This document shows positions 12,287 to 37,440 of a stretch of 64,000 nucleotides of DNA, piece by piece (the first letter of the stretch is position 1; each line of letters starts with the position of its first letter). This stretch comes from Gemmatimonas sp. (GTDB taxonomy: Bacteria > Gemmatimonadota > Gemmatimonadetes > Gemmatimonadales > Gemmatimonadaceae), in the NCBI GenBank assembly GCA_965279375.1, contig OZ257156.1, forward strand, positions 4,544,001 through 4,608,000, in the 5' to 3' direction. The translations under genes and the position numbers were made by a program. Under the pieces are notes generated by a model. It searched no databases. It saw nothing but the letters and a program-made list of their open reading frames with translations, and had not been told where the DNA came from.

Positions 12287-13174
12287 TTACGGCAAGCGAC
12301 GCACGAACTCCGCGATCAGCCCTTCGAACTGCGCGGCAACGGCGCGACCGGTTTCCATCACTTCCGAGTGGTCGAGCGGCTCGAGCGACATGCCGGCCGC
12401 CTTGTTGGTGATGCACGAAACGGCAGCAACGCGCATCCCGAGTGCACGAGCAACGATCACTTCGGGTACGGTGCTCATCCCGACGGCATCCACGCCCAGC
12501 TTCTCCAGCATGCGCACCTCGGCCGGCGTCTCGTACGTCGGGCCGAGGAGGCCGCAATAGACCCCGTCGCGCAACGTCAGCCCGATCGCCTGCGCCGATT
12601 CATGCAGCAACGCGCGCAGTGACCGATCGTATGGCTCGGACATGTCGGGGAAGCGTTGGTCGCCGTTCTCGGTCGGACCGATGAGCGGGTTGCGATACAT
12701 CAGGTTCAGGTGATCGGCGATCACCATGAGGTCGCCCGGATCGAACGTGCGACACACGCCACCGGCCGCGTTCGACGCGAGATACACGCCGGCCCCCAGC
12801 GCAGATAGGACGCGCACCGGGAAGGCGGCCAACGCCGCATCGTGCCCTTCGTACATGTGAAACCGGCCGGCCATCGCCACGATCGGGCGCCCGCTCAGCG
12901 AGCCCACGATCAACTGCCCCGCGTGTCCTGCGACCGTCGCGCTCGGGAAACCCGGGATGTGCGAGAACGGAATGCGCACGGCATCATCGATCTTCTCGGC
13001 CAGGCCACCCAACCCGGAGCCGAGCACGATGCCGCAGACGGGCGTCGGCATCACACCGGCCTTGGAGACGTTGCCCACACGCTGGCGAATGTACTCCGCT
13101 GCTGCGCGCGCCTGCGCCGTACCCATCGCCAGCGGCTGCGCGTGAAAGCTCGCCGTCTCGAAGGCGTTAATCAT
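12287..13174 (-). CDS. punA: Purine-nucleoside phosphorylase, trimeric inosine/guanosine type
   Basis: VLGSGLG, GHAG, GRFHMYEG, GPTYETPAE, GMSTVPE, ITNKAAG; ATGA overlap with add. Confidence 0.95.
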   Translation of the reverse strand: MINAFETASFHAQPLAMGTAQARAAAEYIRQRVGNVSKAGVMPTPVCGIVLGSGLGGLAEKIDDAVRIPFSHIPGFPSATVAGHAGQLIVGSLSGRPIVAMAGRFHMYEGHDAALAAFPVRVLSALGAGVYLASNAAGGVCRTFDPGDLMVIADHLNLMYRNPLIGPTENGDQRFPDMSEPYDRSLRALLHESAQAIGLTLRDGVYCGLLGPTYETPAEVRMLEKLGVDAVGMSTVPEVIVARALGMRVAAVSCITNKAAGMSLEPLDHSEVMETGRAVAAQFEGLIAEFVRRLP

Positions 13175-14259
13175 GCGCGCACCTCCTCGAACTCCGCGAT
13201 GGGGCCGACGTCGGCGAGCAGTTGCGACATCTCTCGGCTCGCCGCGTTGCGCAGCGCCCGGCGTTCGGCGAGCGGCAGAAACGCGGCGTCGAACGCCGAG
13301 AGCGCCAAGCGCGAAAGCATCGGCAGGTCGTACCGCAAATGCTCGGCGCACTGCCGGAACTCGTCGGTGAGCGTCACGCCACTCATCAGGCGATTGTCGG
13401 TGTTGATCGTGACGACGGCACCAAGCTCCACATAGCGCGCCAGCTGATGCTCCGCAAACGAGACCGACACACGCGTCTGCACGTTGCTCGTGGGACACAA
13501 CTCCAGCGGGATCTGGCGATCGACCACGTACGCTTCCAGCGACGGATCCTCGTAGAGGCGTGTGCCGTGCCCGATGCGATCCGCGCCGCAGCGATGGATC
13601 GCGTCGCGAATGGAATGCGGCCCGTCGCCTTCACCCGCGTGCACCGTGATGGCCAGATCGTGCCAACGCGCAAACTCGAACGCCGGCGAATGGGCATGCG
13701 CCGGATTGCCCAGCTCTCCCCCAGCCAGGTCGAACGCCACGACGCCTTTGCCCTTGAACGCCACCGCGAGTTCGGCCATCTCCAACGAATGTGGTGCGGG
13801 CAGATTGCGCAGTGCACAAACGATGGCGCGCGCGATCGTTCCCGTCTCGCGCTCGCCACGATGGAGTCCCTTGAGCACCGCTCGCACCACGTCGTCGGCG
13901 GCGAGCCCACCGCGCGTATTCAGCTCCGGGCAAAATCGCACTTCGATGTAGCGCACACCGTCGAGCGCCGCATCCAGGACCAGTTCATGCGCGATGCGCT
14001 CGAGCGAAACGGCGTCCTGCATGACGGCGAGCGTCACGTCGAAGCGCGCGAGGTAGTCCCCGAGATCGCGCGCATCATCCACCCGCATCCAGTGGCCGAG
14101 TTCCGCCGATGTCGCGACCGGGAGCGTCACGCCCTGTGTGACCGAGAGCTCGTAGAGCGTGGATGGACGCAGCGAGCCGTCCAGATGGCAGTGCAGCTCG
14201 GCCTTCGGCATGCGCTGAATGATCTCTAGGAATGCGCTCGAGATGGTCGGCGCCGTCAT
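13171..14259 (-). CDS. add: Adenosine deaminase
   Basis: PKAELHCHLDGS, TVHAGE, RIGHG, CPTSN, NTDN amidohydrolase motifs. Confidence 0.96.
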   Translation of the reverse strand: MTAPTISSAFLEIIQRMPKAELHCHLDGSLRPSTLYELSVTQGVTLPVATSAELGHWMRVDDARDLGDYLARFDVTLAVMQDAVSLERIAHELVLDAALDGVRYIEVRFCPELNTRGGLAADDVVRAVLKGLHRGERETGTIARAIVCALRNLPAPHSLEMAELAVAFKGKGVVAFDLAGGELGNPAHAHSPAFEFARWHDLAITVHAGEGDGPHSIRDAIHRCGADRIGHGTRLYEDPSLEAYVVDRQIPLELCPTSNVQTRVSVSFAEHQLARYVELGAVVTINTDNRLMSGVTLTDEFRQCAEHLRYDLPMLSRLALSAFDAAFLPLAERRALRNAASREMSQLLADVGPIAEFEEVRA

Positions 14260-14495
14260 TCAGTCACCTCGCTGCGATCTCGGACCGGAAGCACGCGGAA
14301 TATCGCGCCGCCGTGGAGCAGCGTGTCCGCGTCGATCGGCAACCCACGGCTGTCGGTAACGCGCGAGCGGCCAGCCTCGATGTCGTCGGCTTGCTCGGGG
14401 AAGAGCGCGCGGACGGCGTCGATCGCACGCCCACCGGCTGCTACCGAGACGCCGCGTTCGTTCACATATACCCGCAGAGTACCATCGTCGATCAT
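14256..14495 (-). CDS. Small protein, probable beta-grasp (ThiS/MoaD/TGS-like) fold
   Basis: LRVYVNERGVSV...DTLLHGGAIFRVL pattern; its stop overlaps the add start (ATGA). Confidence 0.65.
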   Translation of the reverse strand: MIDDGTLRVYVNERGVSVAAGGRAIDAVRALFPEQADDIEAGRSRVTDSRGLPIDADTLLHGGAIFRVLPVRDRSEVTE

Positions 14496-14612
14496 TTGCT
14501 GATCCAGGTCATCAGGATAGAAACACCACCGGCAGACACGCCCCGGTCACACAGGATGCTAGCAGTACCGGCCTCCCCTCGCACCTCGTCTCGCGCGTGA
14601 GCCACGCGCAAC

Positions 14613-16391
14613 TCACGGCGGCGTCCTCGCGCTGTCGCGACGGGCCGGCGCGCTTCCACCCGCTTCCGCCGCCCGACCGCGCGTTTGCTCGGCAAACGCC
14701 GCGGCGACGGCCGCCGCCGGCTCGATGCGCCAATTGCGCGAAGCGTATCGCGCTGGCTCCACCGAACCCGTGCGCTCACTCTCGCGTCGCACTTCGTCGA
14801 TCACCAACTGGCGGATATCGATTTCCTGCTGAAAGACGACAGGCGCGCCGGATAGCATCGCATAACCACCGCCGCCGCTCTGGCGATAGTTGTTGAGCGC
14901 CATGGTGAAGCTGTCCGTCGCTGCAATCGCGCGTCCGTTGCGTGTGAGCGAGGTAATTCGCGCGCCCACCGGCTGCCGCAAATCGATCACGTACTCCACG
15001 CCCGAGACGACGTCGAAATTGAAGCCCGGCACGGAGGGGTCGATGATGCCGCCCGGTGGCACCGTTCCGTCGGGCTGTAACGTGCGGTAGTGGCGCGAGG
15101 AGTGCTCGAGGAAGGCACGCAGCTGTGCGCCAGAGACGCGGACCGCGCGCAGCGTGTTCTCGTACGGATACAGCCGCGACAGCGAGGCCTGCGTAATCGG
15201 CCCCGCGTCCAGTCCGGCGTCGAGCGAGAATGCGGCGGTCGCCGACAGCTCCGCGCCGGCGGCCTTTCTCATCACCGCGTTCACCAGGTCGGTGATCGGC
15301 GCATCCACCACTCGCGCACTGTCCGCCCGCCACGGCACGCTGGTGCGACCGATCGGTGTGTTTACCCACGCCACAGTCGCGCGGTGCGTGCCCGCTGACG
15401 CCGAGAGCACTGCGGGCGACTCACGATGCCCTGCCACGCGCACTGACTGCCCACGGTGCGCCACCACCTGCCATTTCCGCTTCACACGCTCCAGCGTCAA
15501 CGTGGCCACCGCCACTGACGCCGCCCAGTTACGCGGCTGCACCAGCAGCGCGCCGTTGATGGTCGAATCCACCAGCTCTCGGTGCGAGTGACCGAACACC
15601 ACCAGGTCGATCCCGTCGATCTCGCGCGGCACACGGGCCGCCACGTTCTCCGACGGCAGCCCGGTCGCCACCGTGTCGTAGCTCGCTGCCTCGTTGAGCC
15701 CCGAATGCAAAAGCACCACAACCACGTCCGCCTTGCGCTTGCGAACCTCGGCCACCGCTGCCTTCACCGACGTCACGATGTCCGTCACGCGGAGCGACGC
15801 AGCGCTCAGGTTCTCCTTGTCCCACAGCATCGAGCCCGGCGTCGTACCGCCGATGATGGCAATGCGCACACCCTGTCGCAGCACCATGGTGTACGGCGCG
15901 ACGAACGGCCGTCCCTTCTCGTCGACCACATTCGCCGCGAGAAACGGAAAGGCCGCGCGCCCGATGGCCGCCTGCAGCGTCGGCACGCCGTAGTTGAACT
16001 CGTGATTGCCCAGCACCGCCGCATCGTAGCGCATCACGTTCATGGCGGCGATCACCGGATGCACAGGCGGTGGCGTCACGCGGGCGGCGACGTACAGCAG
16101 CGGATTCCCCTGCAGCAGGTCGCCACCGTCCACCAGCAACACACGGTCGGGGTTGGCACTGCGCACCGAATCCACGATCGTGGCGGCCCCAGCCAGCGAA
16201 CGAGCGGGATCGGCCGCGTTCGCGAAGTAGTCCCAACCGCGGATGCGCCCGTGCACATCCGTGGTCGCGGTAACCACCAAGTCCATCCGCTGTGCCGCCA
16301 CGGCCGTGGGCCATACACCGGCCATCACGCCGAGCATGACGCGGAGTACACCCGCTCGCTGGCGCGATCTCGTCCGTCGTGTGCCTGTCAT
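14613..16391 (-). CDS. Exported CpdB/UshA-family metallophosphoesterase (2',3'-cyclic-nucleotide phosphodiesterase / nucleotidase)
   Basis: Signal peptide; TTDVHG, DGGDLLQG, GNHEFNYG, GHSH; C-terminal LYPYEN, NNYR..GGGGY. Confidence 0.9.
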   Translation of the reverse strand: MTGTRRTRSRQRAGVLRVMLGVMAGVWPTAVAAQRMDLVVTATTDVHGRIRGWDYFANAADPARSLAGAATIVDSVRSANPDRVLLVDGGDLLQGNPLLYVAARVTPPPVHPVIAAMNVMRYDAAVLGNHEFNYGVPTLQAAIGRAAFPFLAANVVDEKGRPFVAPYTMVLRQGVRIAIIGGTTPGSMLWDKENLSAASLRVTDIVTSVKAAVAEVRKRKADVVVVLLHSGLNEAASYDTVATGLPSENVAARVPREIDGIDLVVFGHSHRELVDSTINGALLVQPRNWAASVAVATLTLERVKRKWQVVAHRGQSVRVAGHRESPAVLSASAGTHRATVAWVNTPIGRTSVPWRADSARVVDAPITDLVNAVMRKAAGAELSATAAFSLDAGLDAGPITQASLSRLYPYENTLRAVRVSGAQLRAFLEHSSRHYRTLQPDGTVPPGGIIDPSVPGFNFDVVSGVEYVIDLRQPVGARITSLTRNGRAIAATDSFTMALNNYRQSGGGGYAMLSGAPVVFQQEIDIRQLVIDEVRRESERTGSVEPARYASRNWRIEPAAAVAAAFAEQTRGRAAEAGGSAPARRDSARTPP

Positions 16392-16513
16392 CTGCGAATC
16401 CTAGCCGTGCGCGGGGTCGCATGGGACTGCCGAGCGGGTGGTCTCCGTTGCCCCTGCCCTCAACGGCCGCCAACTTCACAGCACGCGTGCACCCTATGTC
16501 GGCTCCGGCCGCC

Positions 16514-16542
16514 GATACGCACCCGTTACACCGTCGTGGCAT
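16514..16542 (+). promoter_or_regulatory. Putative Pho-type box (three degenerate half-sites, 11-bp period) upstream of udk-phoB-phoR
   Basis: GATACGC-accc-GTTACAC-cgtc-GTGGCAT. Confidence 0.45.
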
Positions 16543-16603
16543 GCCGGACACGACCCCCTACCACCCTACTCACCGTGTCGTGTTTGAACCGGGACGTGAC
16601 GTC

Positions 16604-17278
16604 ATGAAGCCGCTCATCATTGGGATCGCCGGCGGAACGGGCTCGGGGAAGTCCACAGTCGCACGCAGAGTCGCGGAAGCCTTGCCGGATTCATCGGTCG
16701 CGTTTCTCGAGATGGATGCGTACTACCGGGACTTTCGACACCTCACGCTGGCGCAGCTGCATCGCGTCAACTGGGATCATCCGGATGCGTTCGACGTGGA
16801 GCTCCTCACGGAGCACCTGACGGCATTGGGGAAGGGCGAGGCGGTGGACATGCCGGTCTACGAGTTTGCGACGCATTCCCGCAGTGCTCGTACCCGACGC
16901 ATCGAGCCGGCGGACGTAGTCGTGATCGATGGCATCCTGCTCCTCGCGGACGAACGCGTGCGCGATCTGTGCGATGTGAAGGTGTTCGTGGATGCAGATG
17001 CTGACATTCGGCTGGTGCGGCGGATTCGGCGTGATACGTCCGTTCGTGGTCGCTCGCTGGAGTCGGTGCTGGAGCAGTATCTGACGACGGTGCAGCCGAT
17101 GCACTGTCAGTTCGTTGAACCAAGCAAACGCTATGCCGATGTCATCGTTCCGCGCGGCGGCAGCAATTTGGTCGCCATCGAGATGATCGTCGCAAAAATC
17201 CAACGGCGCGTCAGTGCACGCACAGCGGCGCGCACGCCCGCGTTCGTTCCCACTGTCGCTGACATCAGCTCTGCATGA
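16604..17278 (+). CDS. udk: Uridine kinase
   Basis: IIGIAGGTGSGKST, NWDHPDAFD, RRIRRD..RGRS, FVEPSKRYADVIVP. Confidence 0.96.
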   Translation: MKPLIIGIAGGTGSGKSTVARRVAEALPDSSVAFLEMDAYYRDFRHLTLAQLHRVNWDHPDAFDVELLTEHLTALGKGEAVDMPVYEFATHSRSARTRRIEPADVVVIDGILLLADERVRDLCDVKVFVDADADIRLVRRIRRDTSVRGRSLESVLEQYLTTVQPMHCQFVEPSKRYADVIVPRGGSNLVAIEMIVAKIQRRVSARTAARTPAFVPTVADISSA

Positions 17279-17994
17279 ATCCCGCTCCGCCGTCCGCAGA
17301 TCGCATCCTCGTGGTTGACGATGAGCCCGAGATCGTCGCCCTCGTCACGTATCATCTCGCCAAGACGGGGTACCGGATCTCGACGGCCGCCTCTGGCCAG
17401 GACGCGCTCGACATCGCTCGTCGAGAGCGCCCCTCGCTCATCGTCCTCGACCTGATGCTGCCGGGCATGTCCGGTTTCGACGTGCTGGAACAGCTGCGCA
17501 CCGACGACGCCACCCGCGACATGGCGGTGCTCATGCTCACCGCGCGCCGCGAAGAGCCCGATCGTATCCGCGGTCTCTCACTCGGCGCCGACGACTACCT
17601 GACCAAGCCGTTCAGCCCGCAGGAGTTGGTGTTGCGGGTCGGCGCGATCCTGCGGCGCGCCGGCACGGCCCCGACGGCCAGCACCGACAGCTTCGCCATC
17701 GGACCGCTGCGTATCGACCGCGCCGCCATGACGGTGATCGTGGACGATCGCCCGGTGGAACTCACCCCCACCGAGTTCAAGCTGCTGCTCACGCTCGCTG
17801 AACGCCGCGGTCGCGTTCAGGGACGTGGACATCTGCTGGAGACGGTGTGGGAGGCGGCGCCCGACATTCAGACGCGCACCGTGGACATGCACATTCAGCG
17901 GCTCCGCACCAAGCTCGGTGCAGCCGGCGACATGATCGAAACCGTACGAGGCTTCGGCTATCGTTTGCGTGCCGCTGCATCACGCAGCGTCTGA
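17275..17994 (+). CDS. phoB: OmpR-family response regulator, PhoB/PhoP type
   Basis: Receiver (VDDE, LDLMLP, KPFS) plus wHTH (TRTVDMHIQRLRTKL, ETVRGFGY); near pst genes. Confidence 0.88.
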   Translation: MNPAPPSADRILVVDDEPEIVALVTYHLAKTGYRISTAASGQDALDIARRERPSLIVLDLMLPGMSGFDVLEQLRTDDATRDMAVLMLTARREEPDRIRGLSLGADDYLTKPFSPQELVLRVGAILRRAGTAPTASTDSFAIGPLRIDRAAMTVIVDDRPVELTPTEFKLLLTLAERRGRVQGRGHLLETVWEAAPDIQTRTVDMHIQRLRTKLGAAGDMIETVRGFGYRLRAAASRSV

Positions 17995-18019
17995 GCCGGC
18001 GTTCGCGTAACCCGCGTAC

Positions 18020-19432
18020 GTGAGACTCACTCAACGGCTCGTTCTCAACACCTTCATCGTCGCGACGCTGCTCGTCGCGGTGGTGCTCGTAGTGGTCGAG
18101 CGTCGCGTCACCGAGCGCGTACGGTCGGAAGGACCCACGGCGACCGCAGTCTCGAGCGACGAATTCCTTGCGCGCACACGCCGCGACATCGTCTTTGCGG
18201 GTGTCGCCGTGCTCCTCGTCGGCATTGGCCTGGCGCGCGTGCTGGCCCGACCGGTGGCGCGCCCCATCGAAGAGTTGCGCGATGTGGCGCGTGCACTCGC
18301 GGCCGGCGATCTCACGCGCCGCCCCACGCTGCTCGCTGCGGGTGAGGTCGGTGACCTCGCCGATGCCCTGCGTCGCCTCGCGGAGCAGCTGGACAATCGC
18401 ATTCAGGCGTTGCGCGCCGAAGAAGAGCTGCTCGTGGCGCTCACCGAATCACTGAACGAAGGCGTCATCGCCGTCGATGTGCGTCAGCGCGTGGTGCGCA
18501 TGAACGAGACCGCTCGCACCTTGCTCCGCATTCGGGAACCTGTGCCGTTCCCCGCCGAATACCTCCCGCGCGACCGCACGCTGCGTGAGGCGCTCTCCTC
18601 GGTGCTCGCGGGAAGCGACGCATCACCGGGGGAAGTGCGCGTGGATGATCGCACGCTCTCGCTCACCGCGCGCCCACTGCCCGCCGGCGGCGCCATTCTC
18701 GCGCTCTACGATTTGACGCCGTTCCGTCGTCTCGAGGCGGTGCGGCGCGATTTCGTCGCCAACGTGTCGCACGAGCTCCGTACGCCGCTCACGGTGATCA
18801 GCGGCTTTGTGGAAACGATGGAAGACGACGACCTGCCCGTCGAACTGCGTCGGCAGTTTCTCGGCATGGTGTCGGCGAACGTGCGTCGGATGCAGCGTAT
18901 CGTGGACGACCTGCTCGACCTCTCGCGCATCGAGTCTGGCGGTTGGCTCCCCAACCCCACCGAGCTCGATGTGGCATCGCTGGCGGCGGAAGTCGTCTCG
19001 CCGATGCTCGATGCTGCCGCGGCAAAGGGCGTGGTGCTGCGCGCGGACGTGGCCCCCGACGCCACAACGATCTACTGCGACTCCACCGCCGCGCGGCAGA
19101 TTATGAGCAATCTGACCGAGAACGCACTTCGCCACACGATGACAGGCGAAGTTGTGCTGTTCACGTGTACTGAGGACGGCGGCACGTGGATGGGCGTGCG
19201 TGACACGGGGATCGGCATCAGCTCAGAGCATCTGCCACGCATCTTCGAGCGTTTCTACCGGGCCGATCCGGGCCGCTCACGCGAAGCCGGGGGCACGGGG
19301 CTCGGTCTCGCGATCGTGCGCCATCTGGCGGAAGCGCACGGCGGTCGGGTTCGGGCCGAGAGCGAGCCGGGAATCGGCACCACGATCGCCGCGTGGTTTC
19401 CCGTCGCCACCGCGGATTCCTCCGCGAGTTGA
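18020..19432 (+). CDS. phoR: PhoR-type sensor histidine kinase (TM, HAMP, PAS-like, HisKA, HATPase)
   Basis: RRDFVANVSHELRTPLT, HLPRIFERFYRAD..RSREAGGTGLGLAIV. Confidence 0.88.
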   Translation: MRLTQRLVLNTFIVATLLVAVVLVVVERRVTERVRSEGPTATAVSSDEFLARTRRDIVFAGVAVLLVGIGLARVLARPVARPIEELRDVARALAAGDLTRRPTLLAAGEVGDLADALRRLAEQLDNRIQALRAEEELLVALTESLNEGVIAVDVRQRVVRMNETARTLLRIREPVPFPAEYLPRDRTLREALSSVLAGSDASPGEVRVDDRTLSLTARPLPAGGAILALYDLTPFRRLEAVRRDFVANVSHELRTPLTVISGFVETMEDDDLPVELRRQFLGMVSANVRRMQRIVDDLLDLSRIESGGWLPNPTELDVASLAAEVVSPMLDAAAAKGVVLRADVAPDATTIYCDSTAARQIMSNLTENALRHTMTGEVVLFTCTEDGGTWMGVRDTGIGISSEHLPRIFERFYRADPGRSREAGGTGLGLAIVRHLAEAHGGRVRAESEPGIGTTIAAWFPVATADSSAS

Positions 19433-19481
19433 CGCGGAACGCGGGCCGTCGACCGCGGGGCCAGCATCGGCCATCCAGCAG

Positions 19482-20330: not shown

Positions 20331-20420
20331 TTCGGGCGACGATATGCCACGGACGCGCCGGAGGCAACGGGGACCGGGAGGATTTTCCGCCGATCGGGGC
20401 ACAATTATTGGCTGCGGCTC

Positions 20421-20438
20421 GTGACAGTTTCGTTGCAC
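20421..20438 (+). promoter_or_regulatory. Putative Pho box upstream of the TonB-dependent receptor
   Basis: GTGACAG-tttc-GTTGCAC; reverse complement contains CTGTCAC. Confidence 0.55.
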
Positions 20439-20548
20439 AACCGTGTGGAGACCGCAACCTGGGTCACGGAGCTTACCTCCAGACAAAAACTGCAGACGCC
20501 CCGTCCGGGGCCCGTCGCAGCGGCAGGTTTCCCAACTTTACGACATCC

Positions 20549-23362: not shown

Positions 23363-23414
23363 TCCGCTCCACATCGCGCGAAGTATCGACGCGAAGCGGA
23401 GTGATCCACCCGGA

Positions 23415-23443
23415 GTGACGGGACCGTGACACGATCATGATCG
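23415..23443 (+). promoter_or_regulatory. Putative Pho box (three half-sites, 11-bp period) upstream of the large lipoprotein gene
   Basis: GTGACGG-gacc-GTGACAC-gatc-ATGATCG. Confidence 0.6.
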
Positions 23444-23448
23444 AAGTG

Positions 23449-23486
23449 GCACACAGACACGCTTTTGTGAAGGCGTGTCTGTGTGC
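23449..23486. repeat. Perfect 14-bp inverted repeat between the receptor and lipoprotein genes
   Basis: GCACACAGACACGC-ttttgtgaag-GCGTGTCTGTGTGC. Confidence 0.8.
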
Positions 23487-23531
23487 GTTCTAGCAGTCAC
23501 AATTCCAACTCCTTACCTCAAGGGACAGCAG

Positions 23532-25562: not shown

Positions 25563-25598
25563 GAACGGTCGGCGCCGTGGTTTCGGCGCCGACCGTTC
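25563..25598 (+). terminator. 15-bp stem-loop after the lipoprotein gene (terminator or mRNA stabiliser)
   Basis: GAACGGTCGGCGCCG-tggttt-CGGCGCCGACCGTTC; weak U tract. Confidence 0.65.
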
Positions 25599-25618
25599 TC
25601 AATTCAGCCCTCGGATTC

Positions 25619-27423: not shown

Positions 27424-27437
27424 CACGTCTGTTACAA
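27420..27437 (+). promoter_or_regulatory. Putative Pho box upstream of pstC, overlapping the pstS stop
   Basis: GTGACAC-gtct-GTTACAA. Confidence 0.55.
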
Positions 27438-27479
27438 GACCACCGGCGGGAGCCGGAACGTCATTCCTAACTTGCGGGC

Positions 27480-28484
27480 ATGAGCGCGTCACCCGCCGTC
27501 CGGGATCCCTCGCCACCTCCCGCGGCGCCAGAAATGTCCGCCTGGACGCTGCCTTCTGGAGGTGCTTCCTCGTCGCGGCTGGCAGATCGCGTCTATCGCG
27601 CCGCGATCACGGCGTGCGCCCTGCTGATCCCGCTGTTGCTGATGGTCATGGCCGCGGTGATCGTTCGCGCTGCGTGGCCTGCCGTCCGCACAACCGGAGC
27701 GGATCTGCTATTTGGGCGCACGTGGGATGTTGCGCACGGCCGTTTCGGAGCGCTCCCTGCACTGGTCGGCACGCTGGTCTCATCTCTCTTGGCGCTGTTC
27801 ATCGCGACACCGCTGGCGGTGGGCGTGGCCGTCTTCACATCGGAGCTCGCCCCGTCTCGACTGCGCGCACCCGTTGCCTTTCTGGTCGACCTCCTCGCCG
27901 CGATTCCGAGCGTGGTCTATGGCCTGTGGGGGCTGTTCGTGCTTGTGCCATTGCTGCGTAGCGCGGTGATGCCGGCTCTGCAGCGGGTGTTGGGCGGCTT
28001 GCCCATTGTAGCCGGACCGGCATACGGGCCCAGCGTGCTGGCCGCCTCGCTCGTGCTGGCCATCATGATCCTGCCATACATCGCATCGGTCTCGCGCGAA
28101 GTGCTCGCGGCGGTACCACGCGCGCAACGAGAAGCGGCGCTGGCGCTCGGCGCCACACGCATTGAAATGGTCCGCGATGCCGTGCTGCCGTACGCGCGTT
28201 CAGGCCTGGTTGGTGGGATCATGCTCGGACTGGGTCGAGCGCTGGGCGAGACGATGGCCGTCACCATGGTCATCGGCAATCGACACGAGATCCCCACGTC
28301 GTTGCTCGATCCGGCCTACACGATGTCGGCGCTGCTAGCCAACGAGTTCAGTGAGGCGTCCAATGACCAGCACCTCTCCGCACTGATGGCCGTCGCGGGA
28401 TTGCTGCTGCTCATCACACTGGTGGTGAACATGCTTGCGCGCTGGCTGGTGTGGCGCGTGCGCCGCCTCGAGGGTGAGTCGTGA
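27480..28484 (+). CDS. pstC: Phosphate ABC transporter permease
   Basis: DLLAAIPSVVYGLWG, EAALALGAT, GRALGETMAVTMVIGN. Confidence 0.96.
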   Translation: MSASPAVRDPSPPPAAPEMSAWTLPSGGASSSRLADRVYRAAITACALLIPLLLMVMAAVIVRAAWPAVRTTGADLLFGRTWDVAHGRFGALPALVGTLVSSLLALFIATPLAVGVAVFTSELAPSRLRAPVAFLVDLLAAIPSVVYGLWGLFVLVPLLRSAVMPALQRVLGGLPIVAGPAYGPSVLAASLVLAIMILPYIASVSREVLAAVPRAQREAALALGATRIEMVRDAVLPYARSGLVGGIMLGLGRALGETMAVTMVIGNRHEIPTSLLDPAYTMSALLANEFSEASNDQHLSALMAVAGLLLLITLVVNMLARWLVWRVRRLEGES

Positions 28485-29455
28485 GTCCCGCCACTGGCGG
28501 CGGCGCTTCGCCTGCGCGAACGGCTGCCGGCACCGACCGATCCCCGGAAGCTGCCGATCGACGCCATACGCGGCGGGTGCGCTCCGTCGCGCGTCGACGG
28601 CGGGTCGGCGCGGGACTGACCGCCTTCGTCTGGATCGCCGCGCTGCTGGCGGTGCTTCCGCTCTTCGCCATTCTCGTGCACCTGATCGCGGGTGGTGCCA
28701 GCGCGCTCTCCGTGGACTTCTTCATCAAGATGCCGTCAGCGTCGGGCGTGGCGGGCGGTGGCATGGCCAACGCGATCGTCGGCACGTTGCTGCTGATCGC
28801 CATTGCATCCGCGCTCGGTCTGCCGGTGGGACTTGGCGCTGGGCTCTTCCTCGCGGAGCGCGGCGATACTCGATTGGCGCAGGTAGTACGCTTCGTCGCC
28901 GACGTGCTCAGCGGACTGCCGTCGATCGTACTCGGCGTGCTGGCGTGGGAACTGATCGTTCGACCGAGTGGGCACTTTTCAGCGCTCGCTGGCGGAGTCG
29001 CTTTGGGGCTGCTGATCGTCCCACTCGTGACGCGAGCAACGGAGGAAATGGTCAAGCTCGTGCCTGCCTCGCTCGCCGAGTCGGCGCTCGCGCTTGGCTT
29101 TCCGCGATGGCGCACCTCGTTGGTGATCGTGCTGCGTACAGCGATGCCGGGAATCGTGACCGCCGCGCTTGTGGCCGTCGCGCGCGCAGCGGGAGAGACC
29201 GCACCGTTGCTCTTCACCGCGTTCGGCAACGCGTACTGGTCGCTCGATCCAACACGCCCGATCGCCGCGCTTCCGCTGCAGATCTTCGCGTACGCCCTCA
29301 GCCCCTATGACGATCTGCGCGCCAAGGCGTGGGCCGGTGCCCTGGTGCTGTTGCTGATGATCACGCTCATGAGCCTGCTCGCACGGGCCGTTCTGCGCGC
29401 GCGGCAGTCGTTGGTGCAAGGGATCGCACCGCGCGCTGGTGATGGCGATGCCTGA
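28481..29455 (+). CDS. pstA: Phosphate ABC transporter permease
   Basis: GGMANAIVGT, LSGLPSIV, ARAAGETAPLLFT, AWAGALVL. Confidence 0.96.
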   Translation: MSPATGGGASPARTAAGTDRSPEAADRRHTRRVRSVARRRRVGAGLTAFVWIAALLAVLPLFAILVHLIAGGASALSVDFFIKMPSASGVAGGGMANAIVGTLLLIAIASALGLPVGLGAGLFLAERGDTRLAQVVRFVADVLSGLPSIVLGVLAWELIVRPSGHFSALAGGVALGLLIVPLVTRATEEMVKLVPASLAESALALGFPRWRTSLVIVLRTAMPGIVTAALVAVARAAGETAPLLFTAFGNAYWSLDPTRPIAALPLQIFAYALSPYDDLRAKAWAGALVLLLMITLMSLLARAVLRARQSLVQGIAPRAGDGDA

Positions 29456-30233
29456 GACGATCGTGGCTGGAGACGCTCCCGCCGTCGAACTCCGCGATGT
29501 TTTGGCGCGTTACGGCAATCGAATCGCCGTGCGCAATGTGTCGCTCGATTGTCCGGCTGGCATGGTGTCGGCGATCGTCGGCCCATCCGGTTGCGGCAAG
29601 TCCACGCTGTTGCGCTGCATCAATCGGCTGCACGAGAGTGTGGCTGGCGCGACCTCGTCTGGTGCAATCCGCGTGGATGGCGTTGACGTGCATGCGCGCG
29701 CAGTCGATCCGATCGCGCTGCGGCGACGCATCGGCATGGTCTTCCAGCGACCGACCCCCTTTCCTACGCTCTCGATCTTCGACAATGTCGCTTCCGGCGT
29801 ACGCGCCGCGGGATCCCCGCCGTCCCCCGGCGCGTTGCGAGATCTCGTGGAGCACGCCCTGCGCCGCGCCGGGCTGTGGACTGAAGTCGCCGATCGGTTG
29901 CACGGCAGCGCGCTGACACTCAGCGGCGGCCAACAACAGCGGTTGTGCATCGCGCGCGCACTCGCCGTTGGTCCTCGGGTGCTTCTGCTCGACGAGCCAA
30001 CGGCGTCCCTCGATCCGTTGGGCACGCAGCGCATCGAGGAGTTGGTTTACGAACTGCGAGGGAGCGTCACGCTGATCATCGTCACTCACAACATGCAGCA
30101 GGCGGCGCGCGTGTCTGATACGACTGCATTCATGCTGGACGGCGAGCTGGTCGAGCAAGCGCCCACGCGAGCGCTCTTCACCACACCTCGCGACGAACGC
30201 ACCGAAGCGTACGTGACCGGGCGCTTCGGCTGA
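29448..30233 (+). CDS. pstB: Phosphate ABC transporter ATPase (copy 1)
   Basis: [55 protein letters not shown]. Confidence 0.95.
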
Positions 30234-31030
30234 TGCCGACGTCGGTGCGAGATGCCGCACTTGAACCGGCGCGATCGGCGGGCCGCGTCGTGGTCGAGCG
30301 ATTCTCCGCGTGGTTCGGCGAGCGTCGTGCGCTCACTTCCGTGGACTTCGACGTGCAGCCCAACTGCGTCACCGCATTGATCGGCCCGTCGGGCTGCGGC
30401 AAGTCGACATTGCTGCGCGCGATCAATCGGCTGAACGATCAGATTCCCGGCGCGCGACAGGAGGGACGGGTTCTCCTCGACGGTGAAGACATCTACGCCT
30501 CGTCCATGGATACCAGCGTGCTCCGCCAACGCGTGGGCATGGTGTTCCAGCGTTCGAACCCGTTTCCCAAGTCGATCTTCGACAATGTGGCATACGGGCC
30601 GCGGCTGAATGGTCTCGCGCAGGGGGCCGAGTTGGAGGCGTTCGTCGAAGGTGCGCTCCGCCGCGCCGCATTGTGGGACGAAGTCAAGGATCGATTGCGC
30701 GAGAGCGCGCTCCGACTCTCCGGCGGACAGCAGCAACGACTCTGCATTGCGCGCGCGCTGGCCAACGATCCAGAGGTGCTGTTGCTCGACGAACCGACGA
30801 GCGCGCTCGACCCGTTGGCGACGCAGCGCATCGAGGAGCTGCTCTACGAGTTGCGGCGGGACCTGACGATCGTGTTGGTAACGCATAACTTGCATCAGGC
30901 CGCCCGCGTCTCCGATCAGACCACTTTTTTGTTCGACGGACGACTCGTGGAATCGAGTGCGACCAAGCAGCTTTTCACGAGCCCGCGCGAGGCGCGCACC
31001 GAGGCATTCATCACGGGGAGACTGGGTTGA
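30233..31030 (+). CDS. pstB: Phosphate ABC transporter ATPase (copy 2)
   Basis: [54 protein letters not shown]. Confidence 0.95.
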
Positions 31031-31767
31031 TGGCAGACGGCGGCGGATACCGGCACTTTCACGACGAACTTGGCGTGCTCAAGCAGCGCCTGCTCGACAT
31101 GTCGGAGCGAGCCGAATCGCTGGTCGATCTCGCCGTCGAAGCGCTGCTCGAACGCGATCGCGACAAAGCCCAGACAGTCATCGACGCCGACCGCGAGCTC
31201 GATCGCATCGAGGTCGAGGCGGAGAACCTCGCGATCTCCCTGCTCGCGCTGCAGCAACCGATGGCGCGCGACCTGCGCTTCCTCATTGGCGCCATCAAGG
31301 TCTCCAGCGATCTGGAGCGCGTCGGCGATCACGCCGTCAACATCGCGCAAAGCGCTGTGCGCCTCGTGGATTCCCGCGCCACGCCGCCGTCGGTTCCCGC
31401 GATCTCCGACATGGCGCGACGGGCCCGCGCCATGCTGAGCGATGCGCTCGACGCGTTCATTCGTGGCGATGGCACACTCGGGCGCGCGGTCGGCAAAGCC
31501 GACGATCAGGTGGACTCGCTGCACGAAGGTATTTTTCGCACGCTGCTCACCTACATGATGGGCGATCCGCGCACGATCGCGCCCTCGCTCGAACTGCTGC
31601 TCGTCAGCCGCAACCTCGAGCGCGTGGCCGACCTCGCGACCAACATCGGCGAGAACGCGGTCTTTCTCGCTGAAGGCAAGCAGATCCGCCATCGCTACGA
31701 CGAAGAGCATGGCGATGAGGCCGACGCCAAAATTTTGCCACTGCACTCCGAGAGCAAGTCCGCTTGA
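31030..31767 (+). CDS. phoU: Phosphate signalling protein PhoU
   Basis: LQQPMARDLR, DLERVGDHAVNIA, LERVADLATNIGE. Confidence 0.96.
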   Translation: MADGGGYRHFHDELGVLKQRLLDMSERAESLVDLAVEALLERDRDKAQTVIDADRELDRIEVEAENLAISLLALQQPMARDLRFLIGAIKVSSDLERVGDHAVNIAQSAVRLVDSRATPPSVPAISDMARRARAMLSDALDAFIRGDGTLGRAVGKADDQVDSLHEGIFRTLLTYMMGDPRTIAPSLELLLVSRNLERVADLATNIGENAVFLAEGKQIRHRYDEEHGDEADAKILPLHSESKSA

Positions 31768-33371
31768 GCGCTACACCGCGTACCACAGCAGCTGTGGCCC
31801 CGACGGCCGACGTACGCATTGCGGCCATCGACATCGGATCCAACTCGGTACGCCAGATCATCGCCGACGTCTCGCCGTCGGGGCAGATTCGCGTCGTTGA
31901 CGAAATGAAGGCGATGCCGCGCTTGGGCGAAGGGCTCGAGACGACGGGTGCGCTCGGCCAAACCGCGCTCGATGCCGCCGTGGCCGCGGTGCAACGCATG
32001 GTCATGCTCGCCAAGCAGTACGAGGCGCTGCGCATCGAGATCGTGGCCACCAGCGCAGTCCGCGATGCCAGTAACGGACCGGAGTTCACGAGTCGCGTGT
32101 TCGACAGCACGGGCGTGGAAGTGAGAGTGCTCAGCGGCGAAGAAGAGGCGCTGCTCTCCTTCCGCAGCGCCCTCGCGCACTTCGAACTCGGCTCCGGTCG
32201 TTCACTGGTGATGGACATCGGCGGGGGTTCATTGGAGCTGGTGCTCGCCAAGGACGGCCTCATCGAACGCGTCGCGTCGCTTCCCTTCGGCGCGGTGCGC
32301 CTGACCGAGCGCTTCCTCTCACCCGTGCTGCGCCCCAAGGGTGTGCGTCTCTTGCGCGAGCACGTGCGCGACGGACTGCGTCGCGCCGTGCCGGTGAAGG
32401 ACTGGCGTGGAACGCGCGTCATCGGTTCCGGCGGCACCTTCACCAACCTCGCGGGCATCGTGCTCAATCGTACGGGCGTCAGCGTGCGCTCGGCGCATGG
32501 CACGCGCGTGACGCGCGTGGAGCTGGAGCACGTGCTCGATTGGCTGCAGCGCCTCGACCCGACCGAGCGCACGCAGGTGCCGGGGCTCAACCCGGCGCGT
32601 GCGGACATCATCGTCGCAGGCCTGGCAACCGCCGCCGAAGTCGTCGCACGATTTGACCCGCGCGATCTGCTCACCTCGGCGTACGGCATTCGCGAAGGAC
32701 TGTTGCTCGAGTCGGCGCGCGTCACACCGGTTGTGGCCGATCCTGGCGCGGCGCGCGAACGCTCAGTGCGTGAGTTTGCCGAGCGTTGTCACTACGAAGA
32801 GCCGCATTCACGGCAGGTGCAGACGCTCGCGCTGCAGCTCTTCGACGCGCTGGCGCCGCGCATGGGCCTGGGCGCGGTGGACCGTCGTATTCTCGCCGAC
32901 GCCGCGCTGCTGCACGATGTGGGTTACCACATCAACTACGAGAATCACAACAAGCACTCGTTCCATCTGATTTCGCATGCCGAATTGCTGGGCATGACGC
33001 CCGCCGAGCAGATCGCGATCGCGCATGTGGCGCGCTACCACCGCGGCGCCTCACCCAAGCGAAAGCACCGTCGGTTCGCCCAACTGGATCGGGTGCTGCG
33101 CGAACGCATCGTGAAGTTGTCCGCACTGCTCCGCTTTGCCGACGGCTTCGATCGCGGTCACGTGAGCGCGGTGGGGCGCCTCAAGGTCCGCTGGACGCAG
33201 GATACGGTGCGCGTGACCGCCGTGGAGGCCACAGGCGCCACCAGTCTCCGCCTCGAGTGCTGGGGCGCCGCCCGCAAGCGCGGCCTGCTGGAGCAGGTTC
33301 TCGGCCGCCCCGTCGAGGTAATTGGTGCGGACGGCACGGTCGTAACCTTCGACGAAGGCGACGGCGAGTAA
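31764..33371 (+). CDS. ppx: Exopolyphosphatase Ppx/GppA family with C-terminal HD domain
   Basis: AAIDIGSNS, ATSAVRDA, LSGEEEA, DIGGGSLE, GIREG, LLHDVG. Confidence 0.93.
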   Translation: MSATPRTTAAVAPTADVRIAAIDIGSNSVRQIIADVSPSGQIRVVDEMKAMPRLGEGLETTGALGQTALDAAVAAVQRMVMLAKQYEALRIEIVATSAVRDASNGPEFTSRVFDSTGVEVRVLSGEEEALLSFRSALAHFELGSGRSLVMDIGGGSLELVLAKDGLIERVASLPFGAVRLTERFLSPVLRPKGVRLLREHVRDGLRRAVPVKDWRGTRVIGSGGTFTNLAGIVLNRTGVSVRSAHGTRVTRVELEHVLDWLQRLDPTERTQVPGLNPARADIIVAGLATAAEVVARFDPRDLLTSAYGIREGLLLESARVTPVVADPGAARERSVREFAERCHYEEPHSRQVQTLALQLFDALAPRMGLGAVDRRILADAALLHDVGYHINYENHNKHSFHLISHAELLGMTPAEQIAIAHVARYHRGASPKRKHRRFAQLDRVLRERIVKLSALLRFADGFDRGHVSAVGRLKVRWTQDTVRVTAVEATGATSLRLECWGAARKRGLLEQVLGRPVEVIGADGTVVTFDEGDGE

Positions 33372-33416: not shown

Positions 33417-35600
33417 TCAGCCGTCGCGCGCAGGCTCCGTTCGCCCCTTCCCTTCCGTTCGCGCATTCCCCTTCGCGCGAGGTGCGCGCCGCGTCGTGGT
33501 GGGCGACGATTTGTCGCGTACGGCCATGCCCCACGCGTGCTTCATGAACGTCGGCTGCGTGGCGATCTCTCGAGCGGTACCGGACTGCCGGCGCCGATAG
33601 ACGCCGTCGGCGCCGAGTTCCCAGGCCTGTCGGTTGTCGGCGAGACAGGTCTCCAGCAGCGAGTGCAGCTGCGTGTGCAGCTGACGGTCTTCGATCGGCG
33701 TCATCACTTCCACTCGACGATCGAGATTGCGCGGCATCCAGTCCGCCGAGCCGATGTAGTACTCGGGCACGCCCCCGTTCGCGACGTACAGCACGCGCGA
33801 ATGCTCCAGGAATCGGCCGATGATCGAGATGACGCGAATGTGCTCGCTGATGCCAGGCACGCCAGGCAGCAGGCAGCAGATGCCGCGCACGATCAGATCG
33901 ATCTCCACGCCATCCTTGGACGCGCGATACAACGCGCCGATCACGCCGGGATCGACGAGGGCGTTCATTTTTGCGATGATCCGTCCACCGCGCCCGGCGC
34001 GCGCATGCGCCGCTTCGCGCTCGATCAGCTCCAGCATGCGTTCGCGTAGGTTGGCCGGTGCCACGAGCAGCTTGCGATAGAACTTCTGACGAGAGACGCC
34101 CGTCAGCGAGTTGAAAAGGTCGGTGAGGTCCGCACCGATCTCCTTGCTGCACGTCAGCAAACCCAAGTCGGTGTAGTGTCGTGCCGTCTTGGAGTTGTAG
34201 TTGCCCGTACCGATGTGCACGTAGCGGCGCAGTCCATCGGGATCACGACGAACGACCAGCGCTGTCTTGGCGTGTGTCTTGAGCCCGGGCAGGCCATACG
34301 CCACATGGATGCCGTAGCTTTCCATCGTGCGCGCGAACGAGATGTTGTTCTGCTCGTCGAATCTCGCTTGCAGTTCGATCAGCACAGCCACCTGCTTGCC
34401 CTGCTCGGCGGCTTCGGTCAACGCGCGCACCAACGCCGTATCGCCCGACGTGCGATACAACGTCATCTTGATCGCGAGCACGTGTGGATCGTGCGCGGCC
34501 ATCTCGAGGAAGGCCTCTACGGACGATGAGAACGACTCGTACGGATGATGCACGAGGATGTCGCGCTCACGGATGGCATCGAAGATGTTTCGCGTGCCAT
34601 CTCGCAGGGCCGGCGGTACCACGGGCGTGAACGGCGGGTCGCGCAGTTCAGGAAGGTCGATCGATGCCAGCGACATCAGATCGCCCAGCTCCAGCACCTC
34701 GTCCACGTCATGCACGTCGCCTGCGCCCAAAGGCGCGACTTCCTGCGTCTCGCTCTCGCCCAATTCCTCGAGCAGCAACGAGCGGATGGACTCAGGCATT
34801 CCACGCTGCACTTCGAGACGCACCACTTCTCCGAAACGGCGCTGAAACACCTGCTGCTCGATCGACTCCAGCAGATCTTCGGGCTGATCCATCTGGCCGA
34901 GATCGAGATCGGAATAGCGCGTGATGCGGAAGGTGAACCAACGCACCACGTCCATGCCCGGGAAGAGCGCGCGCAGATTGGCGCCGATCAGCTCCTCGAG
35001 AGGCACGAAGCAATTCGGCCGGCCGATCGCCACCCAGCGCGGCAGCGAGCGCGGCACCTTCACGCGGGCGAAGTGCTCCTGCCCCGACACCGGATCACGA
35101 ATCTCCACCGCCAGCGAGAGCGAGAGATTCGAGATGTAGGGAAACGGATGGCCCGGGTCCACCGCGAGCGGCGTGAGCACCGGAAAGACTTCCGCCTCGA
35201 AGTACGACGACACGAGGGCCGACTCGTCCGCCGTGAGCTCGTCCATTTGCACGAGGCGAATCCCATGCGCCTCGAGCGACGGCAACAGCAGCTCGCGCAA
35301 CGCGGAACGACGTCGATCGAGCAGCTGCTGCACGCGCGTTCGAATCGCGACGAGCTGATCGGCCGGCGTCAGCGGGTCGGGCTGATACTGCGGAGCCCCG
35401 GCGGCGACCTTTCGACGCAGACCCGCGAGCCGAACCATGTAGAACTCGTCCAGGTTCGTGCTGAAAATCGCGAGAAACTTGAGCCGCTCCAGCAGCGGAA
35501 CCCGCGGATCGAGCGCTTCTTCGAGCACGCGGGCGTTGAACTCGAGCCAGCTGAGCTCGCGGTTCAGGTACGGCAGCGTCTGCGCGGAGAGCGGATTCAT
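33417..35600 (-). CDS. ppk1: Polyphosphate kinase 1
   Basis: NRELSWLEFNARVL, PGHPFPYIS, HHPYESF, LKTHAK, GRFLEHSR, SADWMPRNLDRRVE. Confidence 0.98.
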   Translation of the reverse strand: MNPLSAQTLPYLNRELSWLEFNARVLEEALDPRVPLLERLKFLAIFSTNLDEFYMVRLAGLRRKVAAGAPQYQPDPLTPADQLVAIRTRVQQLLDRRRSALRELLLPSLEAHGIRLVQMDELTADESALVSSYFEAEVFPVLTPLAVDPGHPFPYISNLSLSLAVEIRDPVSGQEHFARVKVPRSLPRWVAIGRPNCFVPLEELIGANLRALFPGMDVVRWFTFRITRYSDLDLGQMDQPEDLLESIEQQVFQRRFGEVVRLEVQRGMPESIRSLLLEELGESETQEVAPLGAGDVHDVDEVLELGDLMSLASIDLPELRDPPFTPVVPPALRDGTRNIFDAIRERDILVHHPYESFSSSVEAFLEMAAHDPHVLAIKMTLYRTSGDTALVRALTEAAEQGKQVAVLIELQARFDEQNNISFARTMESYGIHVAYGLPGLKTHAKTALVVRRDPDGLRRYVHIGTGNYNSKTARHYTDLGLLTCSKEIGADLTDLFNSLTGVSRQKFYRKLLVAPANLRERMLELIEREAAHARAGRGGRIIAKMNALVDPGVIGALYRASKDGVEIDLIVRGICCLLPGVPGISEHIRVISIIGRFLEHSRVLYVANGGVPEYYIGSADWMPRNLDRRVEVMTPIEDRQLHTQLHSLLETCLADNRQAWELGADGVYRRRQSGTAREIATQPTFMKHAWGMAVRDKSSPTTTRRAPRAKGNARTEGKGRTEPARDG

Positions 35601-36690: not shown

Positions 36691-36697
36691 AGGACGA

Positions 36698-37309
36698 TCA
36701 GCTATTCTTGAGCGCGATGCTTTCCAGCACGTTCGACACGTCATCGCACTCGTCGATGGCGTGCTCCAGTGCGTCAAAGATTTCCTTCCATTTGAGCACT
36801 TCGATCGCCGGTTCTTCATTGGCAAACAGGGCGCCGACGTTCTCGGCGTACAGCACGTCGCCCTCTTCCTCGAGCAGCTTGATTGCTCGGCTGTGCTCCA
36901 CCATACGCTGGCGCTTGGTGACGTCTGATACCGAGTCCAGAATCTCCTTGCTGGCTCGCACGATGACATCCGCCATCTTCACGGCGCCCGGCCGCGCTTC
37001 GGTCACGCGGAACATCACGACTCGACGCGCCGCGCCGTTGATGATGTCGATCACGTTGTCGAGTCGCTTCGCCAGCACATGAATGTCTTCGCGATCCAGC
37101 GGCGTTACAAAGCTTGTATCGATGCGCTGGTTGATCTGGTGCACGATCGCATCGCCTTCCGTTTCGACCTTCTTGATCTCGGTCGCGATGCGCACCGAAT
37201 CGGTCGGAGATTCCAGCAGACCGCGCAGCAGCGTCGCGGAGCTGCCGATGTGTATCGCGAGTTGGCGGAAATGATCGAAGAATGTTTCGTCTTTGGCGAA
37301 GAGCTTCAC
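36698..37309 (-). CDS. DUF47 PhoU-like Pit accessory protein
   Basis: ETEGD, FVTPLDREDI, EEEGD, KWKEIFDALE.AIDECDDV; immediately upstream of pit. Confidence 0.92.
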   Translation of the reverse strand: MKLFAKDETFFDHFRQLAIHIGSSATLLRGLLESPTDSVRIATEIKKVETEGDAIVHQINQRIDTSFVTPLDREDIHVLAKRLDNVIDIINGAARRVVMFRVTEARPGAVKMADVIVRASKEILDSVSDVTKRQRMVEHSRAIKLLEEEGDVLYAENVGALFANEEPAIEVLKWKEIFDALEHAIDECDDVSNVLESIALKNS

Positions 37310-37422
37310 GGCTGCTTGTTGGCTGAGGAATCGCTGGTACTCGCGCAAATCCGACGTCGGAGACGCCGTGCGCTGTGACCGGGAATGAAGCGCCGCCTAC
37401 ACCACTGCAGGAACGGCGAGGT

Positions 37423-37440
37423 CCGTAACGATTGCGTCAC
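37423..37440 (-). promoter_or_regulatory. Putative Pho box upstream of DUF47-pit-ppk1
   Basis: Minus strand reads GTGACGC-aatc-GTTACGG, same orientation relative to transcription as the other boxes. Confidence 0.55.

Follow-up and report, generated by a model that had tools for sequence, protein, structure and literature searches.

The window analysed here is a 64,000-nucleotide stretch of a Gemmatimonas sp. genome, itself assembled as a single contig of 5.31 Mb, and it contains a 25-kb cluster of phosphate and nucleotide genes. At the left end of the cluster a nucleoside-salvage operon, cpdB-orf79-add-pnp, lies head to head with udk-phoB-phoR, and these are followed by a TonB-dependent receptor with two lipoproteins (the receptor cassette), pstS, pstC-pstA-pstB-pstB-phoU-ppx, ppk1 and a PitR-Pit pair. 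A first-pass annotation had read all of this as one island encoding one phosphate-scavenging pipeline under one two-component system, and family-profile scans recover every gene that it named. The comparisons reported below point, with a probability of about 70%, to an ordinary core Pho locus with a known outer-membrane module, standing beside a salvage operon that appears to be separately promoted and separately controlled. The features are listed by position in the window, with profile scores set against curated cut-offs.

12287..13174, minus strand: pnp, purine nucleoside phosphorylase I of the inosine/guanosine type (TIGR01700, 310 against 293); last gene of the operon, its start overlapping the add stop
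13171..14259, minus strand: add, adenosine deaminase (TIGR01430, 302 against 217)
14256..14495, minus strand: orf79, a conserved open reading frame (ORF) of 79 aa, its stop overlapping the add start; absent from the first-pass annotation
14613..16391, minus strand: exported CpdB-like nucleotidase, 592 aa, one module (PF00149 and PF02872)
16398..16403, minus strand: -10-like hexamer, 6 nt before the cpdB ATG (16391); putative leaderless-type promoter of the salvage operon
16512..16544, plus strand: Pho-box-like array of 11-bp repeats facing udk-phoB-phoR (15.6 bits, top 0.07%; in 16 of 17 regions)
16604..17278, plus strand: udk, uridine/cytidine kinase (TIGR00235, 264 against 220); first in the phoBR operon, its stop overlapping the phoB start
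17275..17994, plus strand: phoB, response regulator (best NCBIfam match PhoB TIGR02154, 241 against 296), named with the help of context
18020..19432, plus strand: phoR, sensor kinase with HAMP-PAS-HisKA-HATPase order (TIGR02966, 259 against 334)
19482-20330, minus strand: Sir2/CobB-type NAD-dependent deacylase (PF02146), between phoR and the receptor; found in the genus only and absent from the first-pass annotation
20419..20440, plus strand: Pho-box-like site facing the TonB receptor (19.3 bits; in 15 of 17 regions)
20549..23362, plus strand: TonB-dependent receptor, 937 aa (PF07715, PF13715, PF13620, PF14905)
23413..23456, plus strand: Pho-box-like array facing lipoprotein 1, behind which lipoprotein 2 and pstS probably lie too (14.1 bits; in 14 of 16 regions)
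23532..25532, plus strand: lipoprotein 1, 666 aa, two N-terminal repeats and an ElpS/FII-like right-handed beta-helix (PF28492); predicted receptor lid
25619..26269, plus strand: lipoprotein 2, 216 aa, no Pfam match; falls in unnamed Gemmatimonadota clusters and follows lipoprotein 1 in Gemmatimonadota
26296..27423, plus strand: pstS, phosphate-binding lipoprotein (TIGR00975, over cut-off), binding motifs intact, start approximate
27418..27439, plus strand: Pho-box-like site, the strongest in the genome; a -10-like hexamer and the pstC ATG follow 28 nt downstream
27480..33371, plus strand: pstC-pstA-pstB-pstB-phoU-ppx, stops and starts all overlapping
33417..35600, minus strand: ppk1, polyphosphate kinase 1 (TIGR03705, over cut-off)
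35659-36690, minus strand: Pit transporter (PF01384, over cut-off)
36698-37309, minus strand: DUF47 protein, PitR-type and PhoU-like (a single PF01865, over cut-off), adjoining Pit
37421..37442, minus strand: Pho-box-like site facing pitR-pit (15.3 bits; in 11 of 15 regions)

The salvage operon and the Pho locus differ in the distribution of the box. Repeats of 11 bp, noticed by eye upstream of the receptor, lipoprotein 1 and pstC, served as the seed of a matrix then built from ten pstC promoters, which detects 23 sites of at least 14 bits in the genome, five of them in these 25 kb. A matrix retrained on eight pstC promoters of another family only places the udk, receptor, lipoprotein 1, pstC and pitR sites among the best 0.02-0.22% of 4096 upstream regions, and the upstream regions of cpdB, orf79, add and pnp at 31-85%, the level of background. 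Across 31 scanned regions a box faces cpdB in 1 of 28, orf79 in 0 of 20, and add and pnp in 0 of 31 each. The claim of one two-component system is thus supported as far as the box is shared, by phoBR, the receptor, the lipoproteins, pst and pitR-pit, and not supported for cpdB, add and pnp, which score as background; udk is the sole salvage gene inside a Pho-boxed unit. Boxes are likewise lacking before ppk1 (0 of 18) and the Sir2 gene (0 of 17), and the region upstream of pstS scores as background. Lacking boxes of their own, ppk1 and ppx are probably read through from upstream promoters, ppk1 from that of pitR.

Control genes outside the window, unseen beforehand, also carry the motif, namely phoX (G000:C1:4385028-4386551) and a CotH-VTC-DUF4956-DUF2490 operon (4636153-4640699); besides pst, pit, phoX and the VTC operon it marks the porin gene discussed below. 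Two further TonB receptors are boxed (2899136-2902030 and 4133898-4136987), one of them near exbB/exbD/tonB-like genes named by eye, and this genome gave no PhoA-family match. The fifth base of the half-site (G/T) differs from what we take to be the E. coli Pho-box consensus. Among the papers listed in our open-access literature searches, none was a dedicated study of the Pho box or regulon in Gemmatimonadota.

Judged by its spacing, the box in the shared intergenic region belongs to udk-phoBR, because its distance to udk is fixed (92 nt in most regions, otherwise about one repeat more or less) and its distance to the cpdB -10 is variable (70-195 nt across relatives, with this genome and G093 left out; about 108 nt here, by hand), because it is kept where cpdB is lost (G033, G071), and because it stands before phoB in G074 and G090, which lack udk. 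The cpdB -10/ATG arrangement is kept in all 17 genus regions and in 6 of 7 other family regions having cpdB, and the leaderless layout, in which 5-7 nt separate a -10-like hexamer from the start codon, is seen at cpdB in 25 of 41 and at pstC in 9 of 31 regions; a scan with the sigma-70 consensus found no promoter, and terminators were not in excess. As for udk, it occupies this place in 17/17 genus, 4/9 family and 0/14 order regions and may be a passenger inserted between the box and phoB. Elsewhere in the order udk is unlinked or was not found, and it leads the phoBR operon only within this family. Our search found no literature joining uridine kinase, phoB and a Pho box in one operon; it covered main texts, and regulon tables in supplements could bear on udk and cpdB.

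For synteny we compared the surroundings of phoR, as much as 40 kb per genome, in 30 out of an initial draw of 60 relatives and in 20 out of 70 genomes drawn across the phylum, and tallied the regions by tier with this genome counted (genus, n=17; family, n=9; order, n=14; beyond the order, n=10). Near phoR we found pnp in 17/17, 8/9, 14/14 and 0/10 regions of these tiers, add in 17/17, 9/9, 14/14 and 0/10, and cpdB in 16/17, 7/9, 12/14 and 0/10; orf79 is present in 17/17 genus, 5/9 family and 3/14 order regions. The salvage genes, whose lack of linkage to pst/pho genes in relatives was one half of the refuting condition set by the first-pass annotation, are therefore linked throughout the order and in none of the ten regions beyond it, eight of which are informative because two had less than 5 kb upstream of phoR. 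The unrelated flanking genes pilD (16/17, 9/9, 13/14 and 0/10) and dnaK (15/17, 9/9, 8/14 and 0/10) behave in the same way. Salvage linkage thus matches the background synteny of pilD, spoU and dnaK and no longer counts as evidence of coupling, which it does not disprove either. Beyond the order pstC stays near phoR in 7/10 regions, and the receptor-lipoprotein pair in two of the remaining three. The flanks read as follows.

3088-12272: housekeeping genes, comprising ffh, lon, DUF445, an Hvo_1808-like lipoprotein, a prepilin peptidase (9740-10585), a SpoU methylase and an M48 peptidase
37500-53271: housekeeping genes, comprising rhomboid, dnaK, degP, tRNA-Leu, carotenoid-type genes and tig-clpP-clpX-lon

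We rejected the reading of the cluster as a genomic island: GC is flat (0.63-0.68 inside the cluster, 0.61-0.68 over the window), core genes and flanking housekeeping genes are equally conserved in position through the order, and only the receptor cassette is patchy. The sole tRNA, a tRNA-Leu (the Rfam scan gave no other match), lies 4.8 kb outside the cluster, and the scanned ORFs include no mobility gene, border direct repeats lying outside that search. Contigs of one sample are identical, letter for letter, to window positions 12000-30406; they may come from the source sample, so the match argues only against assembly error.

The nucleotidase has the Metallophos plus 5_nucleotid_C architecture, together with a signal peptide and metal-site motifs read by eye, and its nearest PDB structures include YfkN and CpdB domains. 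The earlier label of a CpdB-like exported nucleotidase keeps its footing in this architecture and in the best NCBIfam match, although scores against the CpdB profiles (PRK09420 / TIGR01390) stay below the curated cut-offs (305 against 486 and 286 against 883); the enzyme is closer to CpdB than to UshA (305 against 116 bits). In 20 of 27 relatives with a match the protein runs for 1004-1081 aa from the match start and carries a second, 5'-nucleotidase-like module, and the window enzyme is the front half of this two-module enzyme, its second module lost. It is also short in G012, G019 and G027, consists only of the second module in four f3 genomes, and is missing from G033. In 7 of 14 order-level regions (one member scanned) add and pnp are separated by a NupC-family transporter gene, which marks the operon as a self-contained salvage unit; no NupC importer was found in the five genus genomes checked, this one included, and a NupG-type permease is encoded elsewhere in this genome. 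A second pnp (G000:C1:3496918-3497657) aligns in two pieces and may be broken. The orf79 product has no Pfam match and a weak match to the N-terminus of a 2Fe-2S protein (E=0.0018 over 27 positions).

Several points weigh against a separately controlled salvage operon. The relatives are kin, taken with a preference for long contigs, and counts across them are not independent; the half-site is nearly palindromic, so the strand assignment rests on few positions; and the seed was picked by eye from three window sites, so that for the receptor, lipoprotein and pstC sites the matrix is not a fully independent test. Moreover, a salvage gene, udk, does sit behind a box, one relative (G037) has a 23-bit box facing cpdB, and the salvage operon is divergent to phoBR across the whole order. 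Precedent, as far as the sources describe it, cuts both ways: B. subtilis yfkN and C. glutamicum ushA belong to inorganic phosphate (Pi) starvation regulons (PMC8475336), but neither V. cholerae nor Salmonella induced cpdB transcription in response to Pi, and in V. cholerae CpdB activity increases when Pi is limiting although the transcript does not change (PMC4714964).

These points could be accommodated if the salvage operon were no direct PhoB target and were nevertheless kept by selection beside phoBR, or induced indirectly or post-transcriptionally, so as to feed Pi to Pst. CpdB/UshA chemistry releases Pi in the periplasm, and the head-to-head layout with its shared intergenic region is stable. 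Post-transcriptional activation of CpdB has a described precedent (PMC4714964), but the head-to-head layout is no better conserved than pilD, spoU or dnaK, and cpdB has been truncated, cut to its second module or lost in several lineages with the Pho locus unchanged, which makes an indirect tie of this kind improbable.

The first-pass annotation went further and proposed a single PhoBR-controlled route in which the receptor imports nucleotides, CpdB strips off the phosphate, Pst takes it up, and add, pnp and udk recycle the remainder. Linkage of the salvage genes to phoBR throughout the order, the boxed udk, the G037 site and the resemblance of the two-module relative to the Pi-induced YfkN all speak for it. 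However, this genome has no box before cpdB, add or pnp, and only that one relative has one before cpdB; the receptor cassette occurs at the locus together with salvage genes in only 1/9 family and 1/14 order regions; linkage decays together with that of the unrelated flanks; and none of the 38 receptor-lipoprotein loci outside the phylum has a salvage gene within 8 kb of the pair. We therefore regard the single pipeline as quite unlikely, and the finding as first proposed reduces to known parts, namely a Pho locus with its outer-membrane module and, next to it, a salvage operon probably under its own promoter.

The receptor and two lipoproteins of that outer-membrane module, as first annotated, are confirmed by Pfam families and by lipoboxes read by eye. 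The 38 loci outside the phylum are mostly in Bacteroidota, and in 37 of them the receptor stands directly upstream of the lipoprotein 1 homologue; PhoB/PhoR-like genes lie near the pair in 12 of the 38, and lipoprotein 2 in none. For lipoprotein 1 an alignment-based AlphaFold model reached a predicted local distance difference test score (pLDDT) of 91, against 32 for the single-sequence version. In a wide structural search this model matches lyases, epimerases and tailspikes at tied Z scores of 18-22 with no clear best; PDB sequence searches returned nothing usable for either lipoprotein, and Foldseek gave no match for lipoprotein 1 at E<=0.001. As no single structural relative stands out, a lyase activity is neither shown nor excluded by the model. 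Neither lipoprotein has a SusD Pfam match. The invariant residues of lipoprotein 1 form clusters of acidic pairs plus two arginines. A paralogue of lipoprotein 1 (38%) is encoded at G000:C1:2052144-2053469.

We modelled the receptor barrel together with residues 1-329 of the beta-helix domain. The complex scored 0.63 against 0.00 for the best control (116 of 157 solved pairs and 2 of 215 mismatched ones attain the score mark, counts that hold roughly for the alignments used), at least 94% of contacts recur between runs, and the partner has a pLDDT of at least 85. The modelled interface includes the invariant E93 and E168 and the conserved R284 (domain numbering). The model supports the view that lipoprotein 1 caps the receptor as a lid, with the reservation that a resemblance to receptor-lid complexes of solved structure could have raised the score.

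A porin O/P family gene precedes pstS in 12 of 14 order-level regions (two cluster members scanned) and none was found in this genome; some relatives carry both porin and cassette, so a swap of one for the other is not strict. OprO-type substrates are presumably polyphosphate and pyrophosphate. Two sequence classes of the cassette occupy the same genus locus, one sharing about 66-80% and the other about 44-51% identity with the window; G024 and G043 carry the cassette inverted and G017 lacks it, in the manner of an exchangeable part.

The closest known arrangement is PUSIV of F. johnsoniae, or 'PhoBR operon' (Fjoh_0542-0549: OprP, PhoR, PhoB, a TonB-dependent transporter (TBDT) and lipoprotein FII), described with phoBR beside a receptor and then a pectin-lyase-fold lipoprotein, as here, with PF07715, PF13715 and PF14905 common to both receptors and with receptor and FII lipoprotein strongly Pi-induced in Flavobacterium (PMC8115612). 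Compared with PUSIV as described, the window adds lipoprotein 2 and pstS to the cassette, continues into a complete pst operon with ppx, ppk1 and pitR-pit, and has no OprP. The Caulobacter crescentus starvation lipoprotein ElpS (CC0170) is similarly paired with a TonB receptor, CC0171, and the two co-occur across genomes, their function being left open in the accounts given (PMC2996285; also PMC11208175). Here the likeness comes from fold, receptor families and context, not from direct alignment. Moreover, Caulobacter ElpS has an adjoining gsp (type II secretion) cluster, whereas the ORFs flanking ours include one prepilin peptidase only, and ElpS has been read as a released phosphatase activator (PMC2996285), whereas our complex model suggests a receptor lid. 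For a lid that serves phosphorus uptake there is precedent in F. johnsoniae PusCD1/2, described as a receptor and surface-lipoprotein lid importing organophosphate (10.64898/2026.09.03.749221), although PusD is SusD-like and lipoprotein 1 is a beta-helix.

The remainder of the locus follows the canonical plan of PhoBR-PstSCAB-PhoU with Ppk1/Ppx and PitR-PitA as far as it is set out (PMC13170248, PMC13577022), with all components present and direct-repeat boxes before the transport operons and phoBR; the departures are two pstB genes, a pstS that travels with the outer-membrane cassette, and udk leading phoBR. In the same way, the nucleotidase has the exported metallophosphoesterase and 5'-nucleotidase C-terminal domain common to CpdB of E. 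coli and V. cholerae and to B. subtilis YfkN; the two-module form of YfkN, as described (PMC8475336), resembles the enzyme of relatives, whereas the window enzyme has one module only. Curated cut-offs are exceeded by pstC, pstA, the second pstB and phoU; the first pstB falls just under (331 against 343), and ppx falls below TIGR03706 (262 against 307) and over the cut-off of Pfam Ppx-GppA. PitR is defined by a single PF01865 domain in the description available (PMC13170248). Further copies of ppk1 (G000:C1:638044-640044) and ppk2 (4228151-4228891) lie elsewhere in the genome.

Some relatives lack PstC and PhoU. No pstC match was present in 13 of 36 genus genomes, 12 of which keep lipoprotein 1; in G012, G027 and G045 pstC is missing from the compared stretch but lies elsewhere or beyond a contig end, and was not counted as lost. 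A family search for PhoU and PstC on ten genomes found eight without both, namely G001, G003, G004, G005, G009, G013, G030 and G067 (90-100% complete; loci L033-L036, L045-L048, L051-L052, L145, L147 and L166-L167), which have no PhoU-family match and no PstC over the cut-off genome-wide. A five-gene tree spreads these eight over about four positions. All retain phoBR, the cassette and pitR-pit as far as their contigs extend, and a diverged pstS, directly followed by ppx, is kept in seven (it is absent in G004). In three loci (L066, L067, L159) the cassette keeps its own pstS and is followed by an inserted second pstSCABB-phoU operon, inverted and more distant, which suggests loss and reacquisition. 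Among the matches listed in a search for literature on Pst-less genomes or orphan pstS, no study concerned Gemmatimonadota.

In these genomes PhoR differs in its PAS domain. Eight genus genomes that lack pstCAB-phoU at the locus (G020 and seven of those listed above, with the HAMP value of G004 left out) have PAS domains 54-69% identical to that of the window, against 76-89% for ten genomes that have these genes, while the kinase domains are unchanged; six of the eight PAS-diverged genomes form one clade, so the pattern rests on about three lineages. PstS is likewise more diverged in genomes without pstCAB-phoU (mean 54 against 71%), with most binding motifs kept. PhoU is described as contacting the PhoR PAS domain (PMC13577022), and divergence of PAS where PhoU is absent fits both that contact and a PitR-led alternative (PMC13170248), within what these sources set out.

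Assignment of the sensor pair draws on the same pattern. Both proteins score below curated cut-offs, and PhoR scores higher against the PnpS profile (298 against a cut-off of 400) than against its own; each genome has one strong PhoR-like match, linked to pst across the phylum, and this context, with the co-variation of PAS and PhoU, supports the names PhoB and PhoR. That the repeats are bound by another OmpR-type regulator, or that the pair senses a non-phosphate signal, is very unlikely: the low profile scores and some high-scoring sites before unrelated genes would allow it, but the single pst-linked kinase, the marking of pst, pit, porin, phoX and the VTC operon by the motif, and a PAS domain that diverges specifically where PhoU is absent, as the described PhoU-PAS contact would predict (PMC13577022), all argue against it.

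On the reading of a core Pho locus beside an independent salvage operon, shortage of Pi would lead PhoR to phosphorylate PhoB, which we infer binds the 11-bp direct repeats and switches on udk-phoB-phoR (autoregulation), the receptor, lipoprotein 1-lipoprotein 2-pstS, pstCABB-phoU-ppx and pitR-pit(-ppk1). With the beta-helix lipoprotein as its cap, the receptor would import a phosphorus compound over the outer membrane in place of an OprO/P porin; PstS would pass Pi to PstCAB, with Pit as a second route, and Ppk1 and Ppx would store and release it. Periplasmic dephosphorylation under the Pho switch would more likely fall to PhoX, encoded elsewhere. The cpdB-orf79-add-pnp operon would turn external nucleotides into nucleosides and then into bases and ribose-1-phosphate, releasing Pi as a by-product, and would not be wired to PhoB.

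A bolder combination, which we offer tentatively and hold to be less than even odds as a whole, is that the receptor, its beta-helix lid, lipoprotein 2 and PstS together make up an energised outer-membrane importer of polyanionic phosphorus, with polyphosphate or pyrophosphate as the favoured candidates and with the lid turning its invariant acidic and arginine residues towards the mouth of the barrel, and that several Gemmatimonadaceae lineages, having lost PstCAB and PhoU, run their Pho regulon on the cassette and PitR-Pit with a rewired PhoR PAS domain.

Other genes come and go at the locus in relatives, among them a thymidylate-kinase-like pair between phoU and ppx and glycosyltransferase, phosphodiesterase, PAP2, PPK2 and CHAD genes (L020:4207-5686; L001; L005; L027; L002). 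The relative G032 (L038:2470-4008) has a boxed 512-aa protein without a Pfam match before pstS.

Our results give a predicted Pho box and regulon layout for Gemmatimonadota, and a structure-level hypothesis for the unsolved ElpS/FII family, that of a receptor lid replacing a phosphate porin. Furthermore, the relatives without PstCAB and PhoU are useful for asking how PhoR senses phosphate in their absence. If true, the polyanion importer would provide a mechanism for the widespread ElpS family and, in these relatives, a natural Gram-negative model of Pst-independent phosphate sensing.

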